From: Opitutales bacterium
Lineage (GTDB): Bacteria > Verrucomicrobiota > Verrucomicrobiia > Opitutales > JBHJGM01
Assembly (NCBI GenBank): GCA_050331815.1
Contig: JBHJGM010000004.1
Location: forward strand, 138,494-202,493
DNA: 64,000 bases
Direction: 5' to 3'
The notes beneath the pieces are model-generated. The model was not told the DNA's origin. It saw nothing but the letters and a program-made list of their open reading frames with translations, and searched no databases. The position numbers were made by a program, and so were the translations under genes. Shown one piece after another: positions 7,766 to 51,900 of the stretch. Every line of letters begins with the position of its first letter. Position 1 is the first letter of the stretch.

Positions 7766-8302
7766 ATGGCCAGTTCCGTCCTGATTCTCTTTGCGCACCC
7801 GGCGTACGAACGCTCCCGCGCCCAGCGAGCCTTGTTGAAAGGGCTGCAGGGACTGGAGGGCGTCCAGGTGCACGATTTGTATGAGGCCTATCCGGACTTT
7901 GCCATCGACGTGCCCCGCGAACAGAAACTGCTGGAAGCGCACGCGACGGTCATTTTTCAGTTTCCCATGTTTTGGTACTCCACCCCGGCAATTCTCAAAG
8001 AATGGCAGGACCTGGTGCTGGAGCACGGCTGGGCCTACGGCACCGGCGGGAACGCCCTGCAGGGTAAGCGCTTCGTCTGCGCCACCAGTACCGGGGGCGG
8101 GCTGCAAAGCTACACAGCCACTGGTGGCAACCGCCATACCATCGCGCAGCTGCTGCGCCCGCTGGAGCAGACCGCCTATCTGTGTGGGATGCAGCCGCAA
8201 GAGCCCTTCGTAGTTTACGGCACGCACAATCTGACGGATGCCGAACTGAAAGAAGCCGCCGCTCGCTACCGCGCGCTGCTGGAAGGCTGGTCCGGCGCAT
8301 GA
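7766..8302 (+). CDS. kefF: KefF/KefG-type NAD(P)H oxidoreductase (flavodoxin_2 fold)
   Basis: LFAHP, HDLYEAYPDF, QFPMFWYSTPAILKEWQD, GWAYG; overlaps the kefC start (ATGA). Confidence 0.88.
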   Translation: MASSVLILFAHPAYERSRAQRALLKGLQGLEGVQVHDLYEAYPDFAIDVPREQKLLEAHATVIFQFPMFWYSTPAILKEWQDLVLEHGWAYGTGGNALQGKRFVCATSTGGGLQSYTATGGNRHTIAQLLRPLEQTAYLCGMQPQEPFVVYGTHNLTDAELKEAAARYRALLEGWSGA

Positions 8303-10359
8303 ACGCCTTGCTGCAACAGGCCTTTGTGCTGCTTTTGACCGCGATCATCGCGGTGCCGCTGTCGCGGCGTTTCGGGCTGAGTTCGGTACTGGGCTATCTG
8401 GTGGCAGGAATTTTCATTGGTCCCTACGTGCTGGGGTTCATCGGCGGGGCCAAGGGCGCGGAGTTGATGCACATCGCCGAGTTTGGCGTCGTCATGATGC
8501 TCTTTCTCATCGGCCTGGAGGTTGACCTGAGCAAGCTCTGGCGGCTGCGCGGCGCCATTTTTGGCGCGGGCGGCGGACAGGTAACGGTGACCACGGGGAT
8601 CATCGGCGGCGGGGCCTACCTGTTTGGTTTGCCGTGGCAAACCTCGCTGGCCTTCGGCTTCATTCTGGCGCTTTCCTCGACGGCCATCGCCCTGCAAACG
8701 CTCGCGGAGAAAAACCAGCTGACCAGCCCAGGCGGACAAAAGGCCTTTGCGGTATTGCTCTTTCAGGACATCGCGGTGATCCCCGCCCTCGCGCTGCTGC
8801 CCCTGCTGGCGGTGGACCCCGCGCCCAAAAACGAGGCAGCGCCCGCGCCCGAAGCCATTGAGGCCTTCATCGACAATGCCGAACCCGCCTACCTTGTCGC
8901 GGCCGGCGCGCCGGTGGACGAAGGCCACGACGTTGAGGGCCACGACGGCCACGCAGCGATGGACACTGCGATCAAGCAACTGCCCGGCTGGGCGCAGGTG
9001 TGCGTGACGCTGGCGGCGTTGGCAGCGCTGGTGTTCATCGGGCCGCGGATCGCCCGCGGCGTCTTTTTGGTGGTGGCCTCGCTGCAGATTCGCGAGCTCT
9101 TCACGGCGGCGGCGTTGCTCCTGGTTATCGCGGTTTCTTTGCTGATGCTGCTCTTGGGCTTGAGCCCGGCGCTCGGTGCGTTTTTGGCTGGCGTCGTCTT
9201 GGCCGGTTCGGAGTTCCGGCACGAGATCGAGGCCGATATCGAACCCTTCAAGGGGCTGCTGCTCGGGCTGTTTTTCATCGCCGTGGGCGCAGGCATGAAC
9301 CTCTCCCTCTTTACCGAGACCCCGCTCTCCATCCTCGCGCTGGCGCTCATGCTGACCGTCGGCAAGGCGTTGATCATCTACCCCATCGGCAAGCTCTACC
9401 GGCTGCACCCGCAGCAAAACGCGCTGTTCTCCGTCTCGCTGGGGCAGGGGGGAGAGTTTGCGTTTGTGCTGGGGGCCTTTGCGTTGAGCCAAGGCGTCTT
9501 TCAGCCGGGCCTGGCAAATATTCTGCAGATGTCCGTCGCGGTCTCGATGGCGATCAGTCCCTTCCTTTTCCTGCTGAACGATCGCTGGCTGCAAAAGAAA
9601 CTCTGCGTGGCGACCGCGCCGGAATCCACCGGCGACGCCATTGAGGAGAGCAATCCGGTCATTATCGCCGGATTTGGACGCTTCGGGCACATCATCGGGC
9701 GTATCCTTCGCTCGTACGGCGTGGGCGCGACCGTTCTCGACAATGACGCCTCCCATGTGGAGTTGTTGCGCAAACTCGGCCTGAAAGTCTACTTTGGCGA
9801 CGCGGCGCGCTTCGACATGCTGGAGGCTGCCGGAGCGGGCAAGGCGCGGCTGCTGGTCGCCGCCCTGGACAGTCCCGAGATGAATCTGCGCGTTGTCCAG
9901 ACGGCCCGGAAACATTTTCCGCACCTGCGGATTCTGGCCCGCGCGCATGGGCGGCAAGAGGCTTATCAGGTGCTCGACGCGGGCGTGAACGATGTCTACC
10001 GCGAGACGCTCGACACCTCGCTGAAGCTCTCCGGCGACATCCTGAAAATTCTCGGGCATCGGGCCCTCGCCGTGGAGCGCGCCCTGATCGCATTTCGCCG
10101 ACACGATGAACGGGTCGTGCGCGAGATGGCCGGCTACGCCGGAGATACTCAGGAGTACATTCGCGAGGCGCGGGCGCGTATTGAAGAGGTGGACCTGCTC
10201 TTCCGCTCGGACCGCCAGGGTGACCCGCTATCGGGCCAGATGGCGGCCTGGGATACCGCCTCGCTGATTCACGATCCGGCCATCGGTGCCAGTGCCGACG
10301 CCAAGTCCGCAGCCAAGGCAAAAGAGGCGCCGGGGTCCGCGCACTCTGAGCAATTTTAA
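8299..10359 (+). CDS. kefC: KefB/KefC-type CPA2 K+ efflux antiporter with KTN/TrkA-N domain
   Basis: AEFGVVMMLFLIGLE, LSSTAIAL, LLFQDIAVIP, IEPFKGLLLGLFF, QGGEFAFV, IIAGFGRFG. Confidence 0.92.
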   Translation: MNALLQQAFVLLLTAIIAVPLSRRFGLSSVLGYLVAGIFIGPYVLGFIGGAKGAELMHIAEFGVVMMLFLIGLEVDLSKLWRLRGAIFGAGGGQVTVTTGIIGGGAYLFGLPWQTSLAFGFILALSSTAIALQTLAEKNQLTSPGGQKAFAVLLFQDIAVIPALALLPLLAVDPAPKNEAAPAPEAIEAFIDNAEPAYLVAAGAPVDEGHDVEGHDGHAAMDTAIKQLPGWAQVCVTLAALAALVFIGPRIARGVFLVVASLQIRELFTAAALLLVIAVSLLMLLLGLSPALGAFLAGVVLAGSEFRHEIEADIEPFKGLLLGLFFIAVGAGMNLSLFTETPLSILALALMLTVGKALIIYPIGKLYRLHPQQNALFSVSLGQGGEFAFVLGAFALSQGVFQPGLANILQMSVAVSMAISPFLFLLNDRWLQKKLCVATAPESTGDAIEESNPVIIAGFGRFGHIIGRILRSYGVGATVLDNDASHVELLRKLGLKVYFGDAARFDMLEAAGAGKARLLVAALDSPEMNLRVVQTARKHFPHLRILARAHGRQEAYQVLDAGVNDVYRETLDTSLKLSGDILKILGHRALAVERALIAFRRHDERVVREMAGYAGDTQEYIREARARIEEVDLLFRSDRQGDPLSGQMAAWDTASLIHDPAIGASADAKSAAKAKEAPGSAHSEQF

Positions 10360-19726: not shown

Positions 19727-21436
19727 TTAGGAAAGCTGCGCGCTGGAGCGGTCGCGCTCGACCAGCTTTTCGAGTTCCAGTTCGGCGTCCTGATAACCTT
19801 GCGCCGAAGCCCGCTCAAACCACGCAATCGCCTTTTCGCGGTCGGCTTCGATGCCTTCGCCGTGCAGGAGCATCAAGGCCAGGTTGTACTGCGCCACGGC
19901 CAAGCCCTGCTCCGCCGCCTTGCGGTACCAGGCAACGGCCTCAGCATCATTGCGGCGCACACCGTCGCCATTGTCGTACGCGAGGGCCACGCGATTTTGC
20001 GCGGTGGCGCGTCCCTGTCGTGCGGCCTTCAGGTACCAGTCGAAGGCGACTTGCAGGTCTTTTTCGACCACCCAGCCGTTGGCGTAAAAATCGGCGACGC
20101 TCTCCTGGGCGGAGGCGTGCGCACGCTCGGCGGCCTGGCGGTACCACTTCAGGGCGACTTTCAAGTCATCGGGCACGCCGTAGCCATTTTGGTACATCCA
20201 GCCGGTGTTATCCATCCCGATGACGTTGCCGGCTTCGGCAGCTTTGAGAAACCAGTGTGCGGCAGCTGCGTCGTTGGGGTCCACGCCCAGGCCGTTGAGA
20301 TAAAAAATGCCGACCTGATTCATGCAGGCACCGTGGCCCAGCGTTGCACCCTTGCGATACCAGTCGAGCGCCTGCTCAAGATTGACCGCCGGGCCCCGGC
20401 CTTTTTGGTAGGCGGCACCCACTTGAGCGATCGCGTCGACATCACCCGCCTCGGCGGCCTGCAGAAAATATTCAAAGGCACGGTCGGGCTCCGGTGGATC
20501 CAACTCTGTGTACAAAAGCGCCAGATTGTACTGGGCGGTGGACTCGCCTTGCTCCGCCGCCTGCTGATACCAATACAGGGCCTTTTCGGTATCCTTGGCC
20601 ACGCCCTGTCCTCGCTCGTAGGCATAGCCGAGGTTGTTCTGGGCGCGAGCGTGTCCGGACAACGCCGCCTTGCGGTACCAGTACACGGCCTTCTCGAAGT
20701 CCTGAGGGACACCCTCGCCACGTTCGTAGCGGTAGCCCACAGCGTTTTGGGCGCGGGCAATCCCAGCTTGAGCCGCCCTCAGGTAAAATTCGCTGGCCCG
20801 TGGCGGGTCCGCCTCGACACCTTTGCCGTTTTCGTAGGCCCAGCCCAAGTTGTACAGCGCCAGTGGCAGATTGTGCTCGGCAGCCTGACGAACGAGCGAG
20901 ACCCCGAGGACCGGGTCCGCGGCTGCGACTTCACCCTGCAGGTGCAGCAGCCCCAGGTTGTTGAAAGCGGTCGGCACGCCCGCTTCGACCGCTTTTTCGT
21001 ACCAGGTAACCGCTAGAGTGAGGTCTTGGGCCACGCCCGCGCCGTCGGCGTACAAGGATGCCAGGTAGGTTTGCGCCTGGGCATCGCCGGATTCGGAATG
21101 CGAGCGAAGCAGCGACGCATCCTGCCGGTTGAAGGCATCGGTCAGCCGGGCCTGGTGGTTCTCGCGAGGACTGGTCCGCTGGATAAATTCGGCCCATGGA
21201 TTGATCGCGGGATTGGCCTGGTTGGCGGGCCTGCGCGTGAGCAGGTGGTAGCTCAGGCCGATCGACGCCGCCAAAATGTACAGCGAAAGGAGCACCTTCC
21301 ACAGGTCCGCGCCTTTTTTGCGCGTTCGCCTGGAGGCAGTCTGGCGGGGCGTGTCTTCCGGAAGTGGGGGAGGTACCTCGAGCACGGTTGGATGCGGGCA
21401 ATGCGTGGCGACAAGGGGGTGAGGTTTGTCCGCCAC
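19727..21436 (-). CDS. Membrane-anchored Sel1-like repeat protein
   Basis: One TM helix followed by roughly a dozen AQxxLGxxYxxGxGVxxDxxxAxxWYxKAA repeats. Confidence 0.93.
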   Translation of the reverse strand: MADKPHPLVATHCPHPTVLEVPPPLPEDTPRQTASRRTRKKGADLWKVLLSLYILAASIGLSYHLLTRRPANQANPAINPWAEFIQRTSPRENHQARLTDAFNRQDASLLRSHSESGDAQAQTYLASLYADGAGVAQDLTLAVTWYEKAVEAGVPTAFNNLGLLHLQGEVAAADPVLGVSLVRQAAEHNLPLALYNLGWAYENGKGVEADPPRASEFYLRAAQAGIARAQNAVGYRYERGEGVPQDFEKAVYWYRKAALSGHARAQNNLGYAYERGQGVAKDTEKALYWYQQAAEQGESTAQYNLALLYTELDPPEPDRAFEYFLQAAEAGDVDAIAQVGAAYQKGRGPAVNLEQALDWYRKGATLGHGACMNQVGIFYLNGLGVDPNDAAAAHWFLKAAEAGNVIGMDNTGWMYQNGYGVPDDLKVALKWYRQAAERAHASAQESVADFYANGWVVEKDLQVAFDWYLKAARQGRATAQNRVALAYDNGDGVRRNDAEAVAWYRKAAEQGLAVAQYNLALMLLHGEGIEADREKAIAWFERASAQGYQDAELELEKLVERDRSSAQLS

Positions 21437-21619: not shown

Positions 21620-21994
<375 letters not shown>

Positions 21995-22060: not shown

Positions 22061-23419
22061 ATGCGTCTGGATCGTTACATCGCCAAAAAACGGGTCATCG
22101 ACCTCGAAAGCAACGACCTACGCGGTGCGCTCAGGGAACTGCTGCACGTCTGCGCGCTCGATAAAATCGAAGACTATGACGAGGAGCAGGCGCTCGATGA
22201 GCTGGTCGCGCGCGAGCAAACGATGACGACCTATCTGGGCAACGGCGTCGCCCTGCCCCACCTGCGGCTGCAGCTCAACCGCCCCTACATTTTCGCGATC
22301 GGGCGCTGTCCCAACGGGCTCGATTTCGAGGGCCAGGAAGAGTACCGCGAGATGCGCGTCATCCTGCTCCTGCTCGCGCGCGAAAACGAAAAAAGCTACC
22401 TCAACGTGCTCGCCTCGCTGGCGCGCATTTTTCAGGAGCAGAACACGCTCAACCGGCTGTTGCACGCAGAGGATCTCGAAGTCTTCCGCGATCAGGTCAA
22501 CCGCGCCTTCAGCGGCGGTGACGGCCAGACCAAATCCAAAGACAACAAGTTCAACCGCCTCATCTTGCGCGAAGCCGGCAAAATTGCCCGCGGAGCCAAT
22601 TGCACCACGGTGCTGATTTTTGGTGACACCTTTGCCGGCGGTATCGACCTGGGCAACGTGTTCGGCGATCTGAAGACCGTCCTCGTCACCCAGAGCGCCG
22701 CCGACGCTAACATCGAGAACCGCTCCGTCACGGCGGCCCTGCCCGTGCGCTCGTTTTCCAACAACCGCCTCTCGCAGCTGCGCAGCGCCGTGCTCATCGG
22801 GCTGACCCGCAACATCTTCAAGCACAACGAGCGGCTGCTCTGCGTGGGCGGCATCCCCCAGAGCAATCAGTTCGACCTGATCGTGGTGGTCGACGTCGAG
22901 CGCGAGTTTCAGTCCATTTTCACACGCCAGACCGATGTGCTGCCCGAGGATGTCCGCCCCGAAACGCTTGAGCGCCTGCTGGGTATCGCCACCGAACTGG
23001 CGGTCGAAGGCCGCGAGGGGCGGCCCGTGGGCGCGCTCTTCGTGCTGGGCGACAGCGAAAACGTCCGGCCCTACACCAAGCAGCTCGTGCTCAACCCGTT
23101 TTTTGGCTACAAGGACGAGGATCGTAACATCCTCAACCCTTTCATGGACGAGACCGTCAAGGAGCTGTCGTCCATCGATGGCGCGTTCATTGTGCGTGGC
23201 GACGGCGTGCTCGAAAGCGCGGGGGCGTTGATCCACGCGCCTGACTACACCCACACGCTGCCGAGCGGGCTGGGTTCGCGACACGCCGCGGCGGCCGCCA
23301 TCTCCCTGGCTACGGACGCGGTGGCCCTGGTCGTCTCCGCCAGCAATGGACAGGTCTCGCTCTTTCGGCGCGGCCAGCTCCTGCCCGTCATCGAGCGCAA
23401 CGTCGGCCGCAATTTGTAG
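22061..23419 (+). CDS. PTS EIIA(Ntr/Fru-type) - diadenylate cyclase (DAC/DisA_N, CdaZ-like) fusion
   Basis: N-term RE..MTTYLGNGVALPH; C-term EGREGRPVGALFVLGD, LNPF, KELSSIDGAF, GLGSRHAAAA. Confidence 0.88.
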   Translation: MRLDRYIAKKRVIDLESNDLRGALRELLHVCALDKIEDYDEEQALDELVAREQTMTTYLGNGVALPHLRLQLNRPYIFAIGRCPNGLDFEGQEEYREMRVILLLLARENEKSYLNVLASLARIFQEQNTLNRLLHAEDLEVFRDQVNRAFSGGDGQTKSKDNKFNRLILREAGKIARGANCTTVLIFGDTFAGGIDLGNVFGDLKTVLVTQSAADANIENRSVTAALPVRSFSNNRLSQLRSAVLIGLTRNIFKHNERLLCVGGIPQSNQFDLIVVVDVEREFQSIFTRQTDVLPEDVRPETLERLLGIATELAVEGREGRPVGALFVLGDSENVRPYTKQLVLNPFFGYKDEDRNILNPFMDETVKELSSIDGAFIVRGDGVLESAGALIHAPDYTHTLPSGLGSRHAAAAAISLATDAVALVVSASNGQVSLFRRGQLLPVIERNVGRNL

Positions 23420-48629: not shown

Positions 48630-49616
48630 TTAAGCGGGGGCGGCAGGCTCCACCGTTGTCGGTAACCCCGCCACGCGCTTTCGGTGCAGGCGGGTGAGCA
48701 GTCCCTTGCCAGGAGCCAGCGCCCAGGCGGCCAGAAAGACCAGGCCTGTCACCACGGCGATCATGCCCGAGGTGCTGGTGCCCGCGAATCCGGTCCAGGC
48801 CGGCTCGAATTGCCGCACCAGTGTATTGATCCATTCGGGTACGAGCAGCGCCAGCACGTGACCCAGCGCCGCGGACACAATACCCACCCCCGCGCTGATC
48901 CAGAGCATGCGCGACAGGCGGTCGGTCAGCAAAGAGGCGGTTGCCGCCGGCACGATCAGCATCGCAATCACAATGATGCTGCCCACCACCTCAAAGGCGG
49001 CGACTGTGGTGACGGCTACCATTGTCATCAACAGGTAGTGCATGAAGCCGGCGTGAATGCCCATCGAGGTGGCCAGGGCCGGGTCGAACGAGCTGAGGCG
49101 CAATTCTTTGAAGAGCGCCAGAATGATCCCGAGGTTCAGCAGCAGGACCGCTCCCAGCACGACCGCCGCGCGCGGCACCGCCAGCACGGAGTTACCCAGG
49201 TCCAGCCGCCAAAACGTATCGGCGTACGTCCACTCGATCGCCCCGTAGAGTACGCAGATGGGGTCGAGGTCGACGTGGTCGGCCGCCTGTACGATCAAGA
49301 GCAAGCCCAAGGCGAACAGCGTGGTGAACACAATCCCCATGGAGGCCCCGCGGTCGACCCGGCCCCAGGTACTGATCGCCTGGACAAACACCGCGGTCAG
49401 CACGCCAACGATCGCCGCACCCACAAACATGGTCAGGCTGGAACGACTGCCCGAAATCAGAAACGCCAGTGCCAGACCCGGCAAAACCGCGTGGCTGATG
49501 GCGTCGCCCATCAGGCTCATCTGCCGCAGCACCAGAAAGCAGCCCGGCAGGGCGCAAGCCACTGCGCACAGCGCCCCCACGATGACAATCCAGGTATCGT
49601 CGACCAGCCAGTTCAT
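48630..49616 (-). CDS. Mn/Zn/Fe ABC transporter permease (TroD-like)
   Basis: GDAISHAVLPG, FKELRLSSFDP, VAAFEVVGSI. Confidence 0.93.
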   Translation of the reverse strand: MNWLVDDTWIVIVGALCAVACALPGCFLVLRQMSLMGDAISHAVLPGLALAFLISGSRSSLTMFVGAAIVGVLTAVFVQAISTWGRVDRGASMGIVFTTLFALGLLLIVQAADHVDLDPICVLYGAIEWTYADTFWRLDLGNSVLAVPRAAVVLGAVLLLNLGIILALFKELRLSSFDPALATSMGIHAGFMHYLLMTMVAVTTVAAFEVVGSIIVIAMLIVPAATASLLTDRLSRMLWISAGVGIVSAALGHVLALLVPEWINTLVRQFEPAWTGFAGTSTSGMIAVVTGLVFLAAWALAPGKGLLTRLHRKRVAGLPTTVEPAAPA

Positions 49617-51085
49617 ACCGAGGTGCCTCCTTCGGTGGCCAGGCGGTGCGGGCTGCCCGGCACCTCGCTGTTGGGCCAGCGCGCCTGCACCTGTTCCTCC
49701 AAGGCCTGCACCATCTCCGGGCTGAGCACGTGCTCCACAGCGTCGGCGTCACGGTCGACGTGGGCGGGCGCAACATCCGCATGGGTGATCAGATAGAGCT
49801 CCCACAGGCGGTGGTTGCGCGTGGTGCGGGCTGCCTCGCCAAAGCCGGCCTCCGACAGTTGCAACGCCTCGCCGGTGCTGCGCTCAATGTGATCCTCGCG
49901 CCGGGCGGCCTCGATCAACTGGCGCAGGCGCTTCGGTGTCCACGAGCGCAGGGGATGCACCTCGGCCAACGGTACGGGGCGGTTGCAAATCGGCTCGCCA
50001 CCGGCCCGTGCGCGTGACTCCAGCACCTCGTACACGGCCCGCAGCAGGTGTTGCCGACCGACTTTGCGGCGCAGTTGGCGCTGGCGTATCCACTGCCTCA
50101 ATACACCGCGAGCGGGTCCAAAAACCAGACTCAGCCCAAACACCCCCGCCGCCGCCAGCACGATCACCGCACCCGCCGGCATGTCTTCGAGCAGCGCGCT
50201 GGCCGCAGCCCCGACCCAGCCGCTGATTCCGCCGATCACGCCCGCCAGCACCAGCATGGTCCGCAGATCATTGGTCCAGAAACGCGCGGCCGCCGCCGGC
50301 GTGATCAGAAACGCGATGATGAGGATCAGGCCCACGGCCCGCAGACCGACCACCGTCACCGCCGCCACCAGCAGCATCAGCAGCGCATCCAGGATGGAGA
50401 CCGGCATCCCCTGGGCGCTCGCAAAACCTTCGTCGAAGGCCAGCAGGGTGAACTCCTTCAGCAGCAACAGCGAGCCGGCTACGGCCAACACGCCGACCGA
50501 TGCGATCAGCACGAAATCATCGAAGACAATGGAGGCCGCCTTCCCGTAGATGAAACTTTCCAGGCCCGCCGCGCTGGCCCCGGGCAGCGTCTGCACCATC
50601 CCCAGCAGCGCCACGCCCAGTCCGAAGAAAACGCTCAACACAATGCCCATGGCGGCATCGTCCTTAATCCGCGTGGTGGCGCGTATGGCCATCACCAATC
50701 CCACGCCGCACAGTCCGCTGATCGCCGCCCCCGCCAGCAGCCCGGCCAGATTTTTTCCCTCCGCGCCAAAGGCCACCAGCAGCAAAAAAGCCAGCGCGAT
50801 GCCCGGCAGACACGCGTGCGAAAGCGCGTCGCCCATCAACGAGCGTTTGCGCAGTAGCAGAAAGCTTCCCGTCAGCCCCGAGGCGATGCCCAGGATGAAA
50901 GTGCTGAGGACGACCAGCCGCGTGTTGTGGTTGGCCAGTGATAGCACCTCCCACGTTTCCTCTAGGGTTGGCAGGGTGACGCGGCCATCGATAAGCGAGC
51001 CTGCCGCCTGCGTCGGTGCGCTAAACAGGCACAGCCAAAGAAGCCCAAGTAGCGTGACCCGGACTCCGCTTGAGCAGCGTTTCAC
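49613..51085 (-). CDS. Metal ABC permease (TroC-like) fused to a C-terminal DtxR-type repressor domain
   Basis: GDALSHACLPG, KEFTLLAFD; C-term RNHRLWELYL...HVDRDADAVEHVL; GTG start overlaps the ATPase stop. Confidence 0.88.
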   Translation of the reverse strand: MKRCSSGVRVTLLGLLWLCLFSAPTQAAGSLIDGRVTLPTLEETWEVLSLANHNTRLVVLSTFILGIASGLTGSFLLLRKRSLMGDALSHACLPGIALAFLLLVAFGAEGKNLAGLLAGAAISGLCGVGLVMAIRATTRIKDDAAMGIVLSVFFGLGVALLGMVQTLPGASAAGLESFIYGKAASIVFDDFVLIASVGVLAVAGSLLLLKEFTLLAFDEGFASAQGMPVSILDALLMLLVAAVTVVGLRAVGLILIIAFLITPAAAARFWTNDLRTMLVLAGVIGGISGWVGAAASALLEDMPAGAVIVLAAAGVFGLSLVFGPARGVLRQWIRQRQLRRKVGRQHLLRAVYEVLESRARAGGEPICNRPVPLAEVHPLRSWTPKRLRQLIEAARREDHIERSTGEALQLSEAGFGEAARTTRNHRLWELYLITHADVAPAHVDRDADAVEHVLSPEMVQALEEQVQARWPNSEVPGSPHRLATEGGTSV

Positions 51086-51900
51086 GAAGCCCGCCCGGCC
51101 GTCTTGAGCGCCTGTCCGGCCTCCTCCAGCAGCGTCAGCTTGCCGCCGTAGGTAGCCTTCAAATTCTCGCGGGTAAAGACCTCCGCGGTGGGCCCGGCGG
51201 CGACCACGCGCAGGTTCAAAAGGATCAGCCAGTCGAAGTACTGCTGCACCGTGGCTAGGTCGTGGTGGACAACCAGGCAAGTGCGTCCTTTCTCCCGCAG
51301 TTCCTGCAACAAAGTGACGATCGCACGCTCGGTTGCGGCGTCTACCGCGGCGAAGGGCTCGTCCATGAAGTAGACCTGGGCATCCTGAGCGAGGGCGCGC
51401 GCCAGAAAGACGCGCTGCTGCTGCCCCCCGGAGAGCTGGCTGATCTGCCGGTCGGCGAGGTGACCGATCCCGACGCGTTCCAGTGCTTCCCGGGCGGCCT
51501 CTCGGTGCGGGCGACCCACCGGGCGCAGCCAGCCGATCTTGCCATACAAACCCATCGCAACCACATCCAGCGCGCTGACCGGAAAGTCCCAATCGACGCT
51601 TTCCCGCTGCGGCACGTAGCCTACCAGCGAGCGCTGGCGACGGTATGGTTTGCCGTAAATGCGCACATCTCCGGAGGCCTTAGGCACCAGGTCCAGGCAG
51701 GCCTTGATCAGGGTGCTTTTGCCCGCGCCGTTGGGCCCAACGATACCGACCAGTTTGCCTTCGGGCACGTCCAGGTCGATGTCCCAGAGAACCGGCTTGC
51801 GCTGGTAGGCGACGGTCAGGTCGTCGATGGCCAGCGGAAAGGAGGCGTCGTGCGTGGCGGCTTCTGCAGCCGGAGAAAGGGAAGGTAGGTTCAGCGTCAT
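51082..51900 (-). CDS. Metal ABC transporter ATP-binding protein (TroB-like)
   Basis: GPNGAGKST, YVPQRESVDWDFP, LSGGQQQR, MDEPF, VHHDL. Confidence 0.95.
   Translation of the reverse strand: MTLNLPSLSPAAEAATHDASFPLAIDDLTVAYQRKPVLWDIDLDVPEGKLVGIVGPNGAGKSTLIKACLDLVPKASGDVRIYGKPYRRQRSLVGYVPQRESVDWDFPVSALDVVAMGLYGKIGWLRPVGRPHREAAREALERVGIGHLADRQISQLSGGQQQRVFLARALAQDAQVYFMDEPFAAVDAATERAIVTLLQELREKGRTCLVVHHDLATVQQYFDWLILLNLRVVAAGPTAEVFTRENLKATYGGKLTLLEEAGQALKTAGRAS

Follow-up and report, generated by a model that had tools for sequence, protein, structure and literature searches.

A three-domain EIIA-DacZ_P-DAC protein of Opitutales: a putative c-di-AMP synthase with a phosphotransferase input domain

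Introduction

Even in model bacteria, little is understood of how the synthesis of cyclic di-AMP (c-di-AMP) is controlled. A gene of an Opitutales bacterium raises this question in a concrete form, because it fuses an input domain of known chemistry to a diadenylate cyclase (DAC). The gene lies within a 64,000-nucleotide stretch of contig JBHJGM010000004.1 (assembly GCA_050331815.1), hereafter the window, and encodes an enzyme IIA (EIIA) domain of the phosphotransferase system (PTS), a DacZ_P domain and a DAC domain. An earlier note on the window had put it forward as a candidate c-di-AMP synthase under the control of a phosphorelay. Here we ask whether the protein can make c-di-AMP, whether the PTS can reach it, and how widespread it is. 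In the reading that we favour, it is probably the only diadenylate cyclase of the cell, a soluble enzyme of the DacZ type whose activity is set, through EIIA, by a PTS that has no transporter.

Results

Three domains and their active-site residues

Scanning with profile hidden Markov models placed PTS_EIIA_2, DacZ_P and DAC above their Pfam cut-offs (Table 1), which bore out the proposal of the earlier note that an EIIA domain, a middle domain and a cyclase domain are joined in one polypeptide. The PK_C-like DacZ_P domain directly precedes DAC, and weak PK_C scores were obtained also at loci related to the fusion gene; we take this Pfam family to derive from the 2023 work of Galperin. The GC pattern by codon position equals that of the other genes of the window (GC content at third positions 0.84). 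A word-indexed search reported 2493 homologues at E ≤ 0.001, and the best 120 of these all have three domains and a length of 448–464 amino acids (aa), with Opitutales, Puniceicoccaceae, Cerasicoccus, Coraliomargarita and Lentimonas among their names. Given these numbers, and since the key residues are invariant in 25 aligned homologues (see below), the three-domain architecture is not due to chance. The fusion protein did not reach the cut-off of any of three NCBIfam equivalog models: it scored 102.3 bits against haloarchaeal DacZ (NF041371), far under the cut-off of 430 and over residues 217–441 only, 44.8 bits against PtsN (TIGR01419, cut-off 138.7) and 50.7 bits against fruA-IIA (cut-off 103.5). 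It is therefore a relative, and not an orthologue, of DacZ, PtsN and fruA-IIA.

To follow the residues that matter for function we used two alignments, one of 25 close homologues (61–92% identity to the fusion protein) and one, built with MAFFT, of 85 diverse representatives of 425–540 aa (from 50%-identity clusters, 150 of which were listed), which reach down to approximately 28% identity. The DGA and RH(A) motifs of the cyclase, which the earlier note had pointed out, were recovered in alignment with CdaA (Table 1). D373, G374, A375, R407, H408, A409 and A410 are invariant in all the close homologues; among the diverse representatives D373, G374, R407 and H408 are each kept in 85/85 and A375 in 81/85. 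The strict RHR motif is absent from the fusion protein, while its first two residues are present. Across the 85 representatives the residue following RH is most often alanine (44), followed by threonine (15), glutamine (8) and arginine (7). As this third position is variable across the clade, RHA is, to judge from the alignment, the clade's norm and not a lesion. The domain matches the structures of CdaA, DisA and CdaM in phmmer and Foldseek searches.

The EIIA domain retains the G-x-A-x-P-H context of a phospho-acceptor histidine, and the histidine codon falls exactly where the earlier note had located it. His67 aligns with the histidine of GVAIPH in the PtsN structure 3urr (GNGVALPHLRL in the fusion protein, GEGVAIPHGRI in PtsN), to which the domain is matched by phmmer with an E-value of 7.2e-8. 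P66, H67 and R69 are invariant in the 25 close homologues. In the diverse set, where two rows have no aligned EIIA part, a histidine occupies this column in 78 of the 85 representatives, and the surrounding P66 (82/85), R51 (76/85) and E52 (81/85) are kept as well.

An AlphaFold2 model was computed from an alignment of 89 sequences (mean pLDDT 87.6). The DAC fold was modelled at high confidence, and the sole internal stretch predicted to be disordered is the linker between EIIA and DacZ_P, residues 153–160. When the model was compared with the PDB by Foldseek, EIIA-Ntr proteins came up first (3urr, 4gqx and 2a0j; target TM-score 0.80–0.81), and the catalytic domains of CdaA, DisA, CdaM and DacM came up after them. 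Neither Kyte-Doolittle analysis nor the model showed a transmembrane helix in the fusion protein, as the earlier note had also concluded. The most hydrophobic 19-mer (residues 409–427, Kyte-Doolittle 1.85) was considered as a transmembrane helix and rejected, because in the model it forms a helix and a strand of the DAC core.

PTS and c-di-AMP partner genes

We searched the genome to which the window belongs (25 contigs, 3.17 Mb, 96.4% complete) for the proteins that such a cyclase would need. Its sole DAC domain and its sole PTS_EIIA_2 domain are both in the fusion gene, and neither EIIA-man nor PTS_EIIA_1 was found. The earlier note had named the lack of enzyme I (EI) or HPr as a ground for giving up its proposal; both are encoded. 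EI (629 aa, 624.6 bits) has the N-terminal, mobile and phosphoenolpyruvate (PEP)-binding domains and no GAF domain, and HPr (99 aa) carries GIHARPA, with His25, and GKSIMG, with Ser57, two sites that do not vary among 31 HPr sequences in an alignment. A full HprK/P, with its N- and C-terminal domains, is present too. The search for a c-di-AMP phosphodiesterase, which the earlier note had suggested, yielded a PgpH-type HD enzyme (7TMR-HDED, 7TM and HD) encoded in a phoH-pgpH-ybeY row. The suggestion to look for receptors fared less evenly: neither the c-di-AMP riboswitch RF00379 nor DarA/PstA (PF06153) was found in the genome, and the search did give three proteins in which TrkA_C (RCK_C) domains occur as a pair, namely an antiporter of the Na_H_Exchanger type, a carrier of the CitMHS type and TrkA; these are candidate receptors by analogy only.

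The antiporter among them (803 aa, contig C2 at 302217–304628) carries its two TrkA_C domains at the C-terminus and is a natural first candidate target. Its architecture presumably resembles that of the c-di-AMP-binding CpaA of S. aureus. It also resembles in architecture E. coli YcgO, which a 2026 preprint describes as inhibited by PtsN. A further antiporter gene, of the Kef-type cation/proton kind (Na_H_Exchanger and TrkA_N, 725 aa), lies in the window itself at 8182–10359 on the plus strand, 12 kb upstream of the fusion gene; its product showed no TrkA_C domain.

HPr and EI were found in most of the other fusion-bearing genomes tested. HPr was present in 72 of the 73 fusion-bearing Opitutales genomes tested (exception G024), the N-domain of EI likewise in 72/73 (exception G198), and both HPr and EI in all five fusion-bearing genomes of other verrucomicrobial families.

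Distribution and descent of the fusion

An exhaustive search for homologues reported 4081 cluster representatives at E ≤ 0.001, 319 of them at E ≤ 1e-30. When a profile of the family was run against 401 genomes of the phylum (full-length copies gave E-values below 1e-120), the full-length fusion was found in 79 of the 81 sampled genomes of the window's order, which we took to be Opitutales from the names of the best matches, in addition to the window's own genome. The two Opitutales genomes that lack it, G192 (99% complete) and G273 (98%), are devoid of any DAC domain. In other orders of the class the matches were only EIIA-sized, and elsewhere in the phylum the full-length fusion occurs in few genomes (G004, G008, G104 and G386). 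In G223 the match is restricted to the DacZ_P-DAC stretch (profile positions 169–446), within an open frame of 840 aa. In two Opitutales genomes the fusion is accompanied by another DacZ_P-DAC gene, of approximately 300 aa, that lacks EIIA (G138:C8:21896-22621 and G309:C1:3446917-3447618). In G333 (C3:4219-5562) an otherwise full-length match (E 3.8e-173) is interrupted by one in-frame TAA, and may be a pseudogene or reflect a sequencing error.

A profile of a distant branch reported full-length relatives in metagenome-assembled genomes of Spirochaetota, Fibrobacterota, Kiritimatiellae, Planctomycetota (Brocadiia, Fuerstiella) and Hydrogenedentes. All nine distant loci that were scanned had PTS_EIIA_2 and DAC above the cut-off; DacZ_P was above the cut-off in three of them, below it in two and not listed in four. 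DacZ_P-DAC proteins that lack EIIA were found in Planctomycetota, Methylomirabilis and Thermodesulfobacteriota (3/3 scanned). To get clues on how often the fusion arose, we built a quick, unrooted maximum-likelihood tree of the DacZ_P-DAC part with 116 rows, 88 of them fused, after removing four rows that were cut at the N-terminus (P0127, P0218, P0252 and P0259); some of the unfused rows that are scattered over the tree may stem from gene calls that were truncated. The fused label requires eight changes on this tree, at least four of them forced by well-supported branches, as compared with a mean of 25.1 when labels were shuffled, and one group holds 22 of the 28 unfused rows. This reads only as an indication of few origins and mostly vertical descent. 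To judge from these searches the fusion family is large and old. The gene of the window is an intact, ordinary orthologue within this widespread, catalogued and uncharacterised family.

Gene neighbourhood

The fusion gene follows nuoA, and no terminator-like site was found on the plus strand between the two. The same arrangement, with nuoA directly upstream, was seen in 10 of 12 related loci (approximately 60% identity) and in 10 further verrucomicrobial loci (the loci of this comparison are L018-L029, L106, L107, L115, L122, L137, L138, L142, L144, L146 and L147). This nuoA is the only one of the genome and stands apart from the other nuo genes, nuoB being on contig C9. The two genes are possibly co-transcribed; their adjacency may also be simply conserved synteny. 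Divergently upstream of nuoA, at 19727–21436 on the minus strand, is a gene whose 569-aa product has 11 Sel1 repeats and a hydrophobic segment at the N-terminus. Farther along the window, on the minus strand at 49616–51592, a 659-aa open reading frame (ORF) encodes an ABC-3 metal-transport permease that carries, at its C-terminus, an Fe_dep_repr_C domain (MntR/DtxR-type metal-binding), an unusual fusion of permease and sensor; next to it are genes for another ABC-3 permease, for a binding protein of the ZnuA type and for a repressor of the DtxR family with FeoA.

Table 1. Coordinates of the fusion gene, its domains and motifs, and the upstream gene (window positions; domain and motif residues refer to the fusion protein).
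Feature	Positions	Strand	Residues	Evidence
nuoA (NADH-quinone oxidoreductase subunit A)	21638..21994	+		Pfam Oxidored_q4, 101.9 bits; 66 bases upstream of the fusion gene
EIIA-DacZ_P-DAC fusion gene, stop codon included	22061..23419	+	452 aa	single ORF, ATG start; three Pfam domains; 2493 homologues
PTS_EIIA_2 domain, EIIA(Ntr/Fru/Mtl) type	22100..22492	+	14-144	Pfam, 75.7 bits (cut-off 27)
His67 codon CAC, predicted phospho-acceptor	22259..22261	+	67	end of GVALPH; aligned to the PtsN histidine
DacZ_P domain (PF21755), PK_C-like presumed sensor of DacZ-type cyclases	22547..22912	+	163-284	Pfam, 59.9 bits (cut-off 27.4)
DAC catalytic domain (DAC/DisA_N, PF02457)	23000..23377	+	314-439	Pfam, 74.1 bits (cut-off 27)
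DGA motif	23177..23185	+	373-375	DGAFIVRG aligned to DGAVIIKG of CdaA (6hvl/6hvn)
RHA, at the place of RHR in CdaA/DisA	23279..23287	+	407-409	GSRHAAAAAIS aligned to GTRHRAALGIS of CdaA (6hvl/6hvn)

Discussion

A proposed signalling chain

The fusion protein is very likely a c-di-AMP synthase. With somewhat less assurance, we expect that EI and HPr serve to phosphorylate His67, and that this modification modulates the synthesis of c-di-AMP. In such a chain EI would phosphorylate itself from PEP and pass the phosphoryl group to His25 of HPr, which would hand it on to His67 of EIIA, and HprK/P, by phosphorylating Ser57 of HPr, would throttle the flux to EIIA. Through the flexible linker (153–160) and DacZ_P, the phospho-state of EIIA would alter the pairing of the catalytic domains; as DAC domains must meet head-to-head to synthesise c-di-AMP, this state would set the rate. 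The product would be broken down by PgpH, and would act on targets such as the transporters that bear RCK_C domains. Phosphorylation may either raise or lower the activity, and the physiological signal may be PEP/pyruvate, or fructose bisphosphate/ATP through HprK.

A broader version of this scheme is conceivable, and we hold it only tentatively: the Opitutales PTS (EI, HPr and HprK) may have been reduced to a dedicated input for c-di-AMP, with the fusion protein replacing PtsN as the only terminal phospho-acceptor, so that c-di-AMP would be set directly by PEP/pyruvate and by whatever metabolites HprK senses, and through c-di-AMP also the transport of K+ and osmolytes (RCK_C antiporter, TrkA and CitMHS-type carrier). 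The link to K+, which the earlier note had phrased as two K+-control logics fused into one, is suggested by analogy with PtsN and with c-di-AMP in other organisms, together with the three RCK_C proteins.

Weighing the alternatives

Several observations weigh against PTS control of the cyclase. At the position of His67, 5 of the 83 aligned representatives have another residue (glutamine in two; asparagine, arginine and serine in one each), which implies that phosphorylation is dispensable in some lineages. A second histidine conserved in EIIA domains, present in 53 of the 85 representatives, is Tyr113 in this gene (codon 22397–22399); tyrosine occupies the column in 16 representatives and is invariant in the 25-sequence alignment. 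The genes for HPr, EI and HprK are on contigs other than that of the fusion gene, and in 80 related loci none of these three genes, nor that for PgpH, was found within 3 kb of it. The only PTS linkage seen was in a verrucomicrobial genome of another family (G386:C162:9298-12700), where an EI gene lies convergent beside the EIIA-DAC gene. No HPr was found in G024 and no EI N-domain in G198, although both have the fusion and are 98–99% complete. Conversely, G192 keeps HPr and EI without the fusion, and G273, which has neither the fusion nor HPr, keeps EI, so that the PTS must have at least one other role. As nearly all sampled genomes of the order have HPr and EI in any case, the co-occurrence of these with the fusion is weak evidence. 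The predicted template-modelling score of the AlphaFold2 model is just 0.65, and hence the packing between the domains is not fixed by the model. No experiments on any family member were found in the literature.

Many of these points would fit equally a working c-di-AMP synthase in which EIIA has no role in phosphotransfer and serves instead for dimerisation or for binding a ligand or a partner, the activity being set by a ligand of DacZ_P or by expression. The losses of His67, Tyr113 in place of the second histidine, the unlinked PTS genes and the PTS parts of G192 and G273 are all compatible with it. So are the DacZ_P-DAC proteins that lack EIIA, which mostly group together in the tree and occur also as the extra paralogues of G138 and G309, and whose existence indicates that the cyclase core works without EIIA. 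We nevertheless regard this explanation as unlikely, since the conservation of His67 together with P66, R51 and E52 at identities of about 28–35% is hard to explain without phosphotransfer chemistry. It would also leave EI, HPr and HprK of this genome without a terminal acceptor, as the genome has no other EIIA and no EIIC permease was found in it among the three families tested (PTS_EIIC, EII-Sor and EIIC-GAT), other EIIB/EIIC families not having been searched. The lack of such a permease and of any other EIIA makes the PTS look like a pure signalling chain that ends at the cyclase.

It could be argued, too, that the DAC domain has lost its catalytic activity or yields a different product, and that the protein works chiefly by protein-protein contacts, as a regulator similar to PtsN, given RHA in place of the RHR of CdaA/DisA and the low score against the DacZ model. 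This we consider highly improbable: the D, G, R and H of the two motifs are present in every representative and the third residue of RHR varies freely clade-wide, the predicted DAC fold is confident and matches CdaA and DisA structures, and the domain is the sole DAC of a genome that retains a PgpH-type c-di-AMP phosphodiesterase, while the two fusion-less Opitutales genomes have no DAC whatever. Control of a DacZ-type cyclase by the PTS through EIIA thus remains the reading that we favour.

If this reading is true, a diadenylate cyclase would have a defined upstream signal. It would explain, too, why many bacteria of the Planctomycetes-Verrucomicrobia-Chlamydiae (PVC) group, Fibrobacterota and Spirochaetota have a PTS without sugar permeases. 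In the broader, more tentative version there would be a direct wire from central carbon status to a second messenger known as an 'essential poison', and one polypeptide would unite two routes to K+ control, that of PtsN in Proteobacteria and that of c-di-AMP in Firmicutes. The value lies in a family that is already catalogued, and this particular gene adds nothing over its many orthologues.

Comparison with known systems

Corrigan and Gruendling, in 2013, reportedly defined DacD as the EIIA-bearing DAC of Opitutae. A class of this name, following the nomenclature of Corrigan & Gruendling 2013, is listed in the legend of an appendix tree in Braun et al. 2019 (PMC6741144), where its representatives are all Opitutae/Verrucomicrobia (Lacunisphaera, Puniceicoccaceae, Coraliomargarita and an Opitutae bacterium). 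Since these taxon names are those of the homologues of the fusion gene, and since the genomes checked have the fusion as their only or main DAC, the gene is almost certainly a member of DacD as listed in that legend. The guess of the earlier note that the architecture was catalogued and uncharacterised therefore seems right, as far as these sources go; no functional study of any DacD or EIIA-DAC member was found in a literature search outside of which the main DAC surveys lay. According to PMC12901056, 22 families of DACs are distinguished in Galperin 2023, and most of the bacterial DacZ-type matches (19/21 species) come from gut Verrucomicrobiota.

With CdaA, DisA, CdaS and CdaM the fusion protein has in common the catalytic DAC domain with its DGA and RH motifs. 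The accompanying modules differ: the fusion protein has no transmembrane helices, no identified partners of the CdaR/GlmM type and no DNA-binding domain, and it has RHA where these enzymes have RHR. In Proteobacteria, PtsN controls TrkA, KdpD and YcgO. The EIIA domain of the fusion protein has the fold of proteobacterial EIIA(Ntr)/PtsN, its phospho-histidine and its ARE arginine, and, as in PTS(Ntr), belongs to a PTS without a permease. However, PtsN binds partner proteins, whereas here EIIA is fused to an enzyme; Tyr113 stands at the place of the second active-site histidine, the PtsN model is not reached, and the EI of this genome differs in having no GAF domain.

The remainder of the protein has an archaeal parallel. 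As reported in PMC6741144, DacZ and CdaZ form one family with a PK_C-like N-terminal fold, bacterial members are on the same branch, and DacZ of Haloferax volcanii synthesises c-di-AMP in an Mn-dependent manner. The core of DacZ_P (PK_C-like) and DAC, as well as solubility, are common to the fusion protein and to the archaeal DacZ/CdaZ of H. volcanii and Methanocaldococcus jannaschii. The fusion protein, which is not their orthologue by the NCBIfam score, is encoded downstream of nuoA and has no mscS neighbour, and it adds to the shared core an N-terminal EIIA domain.

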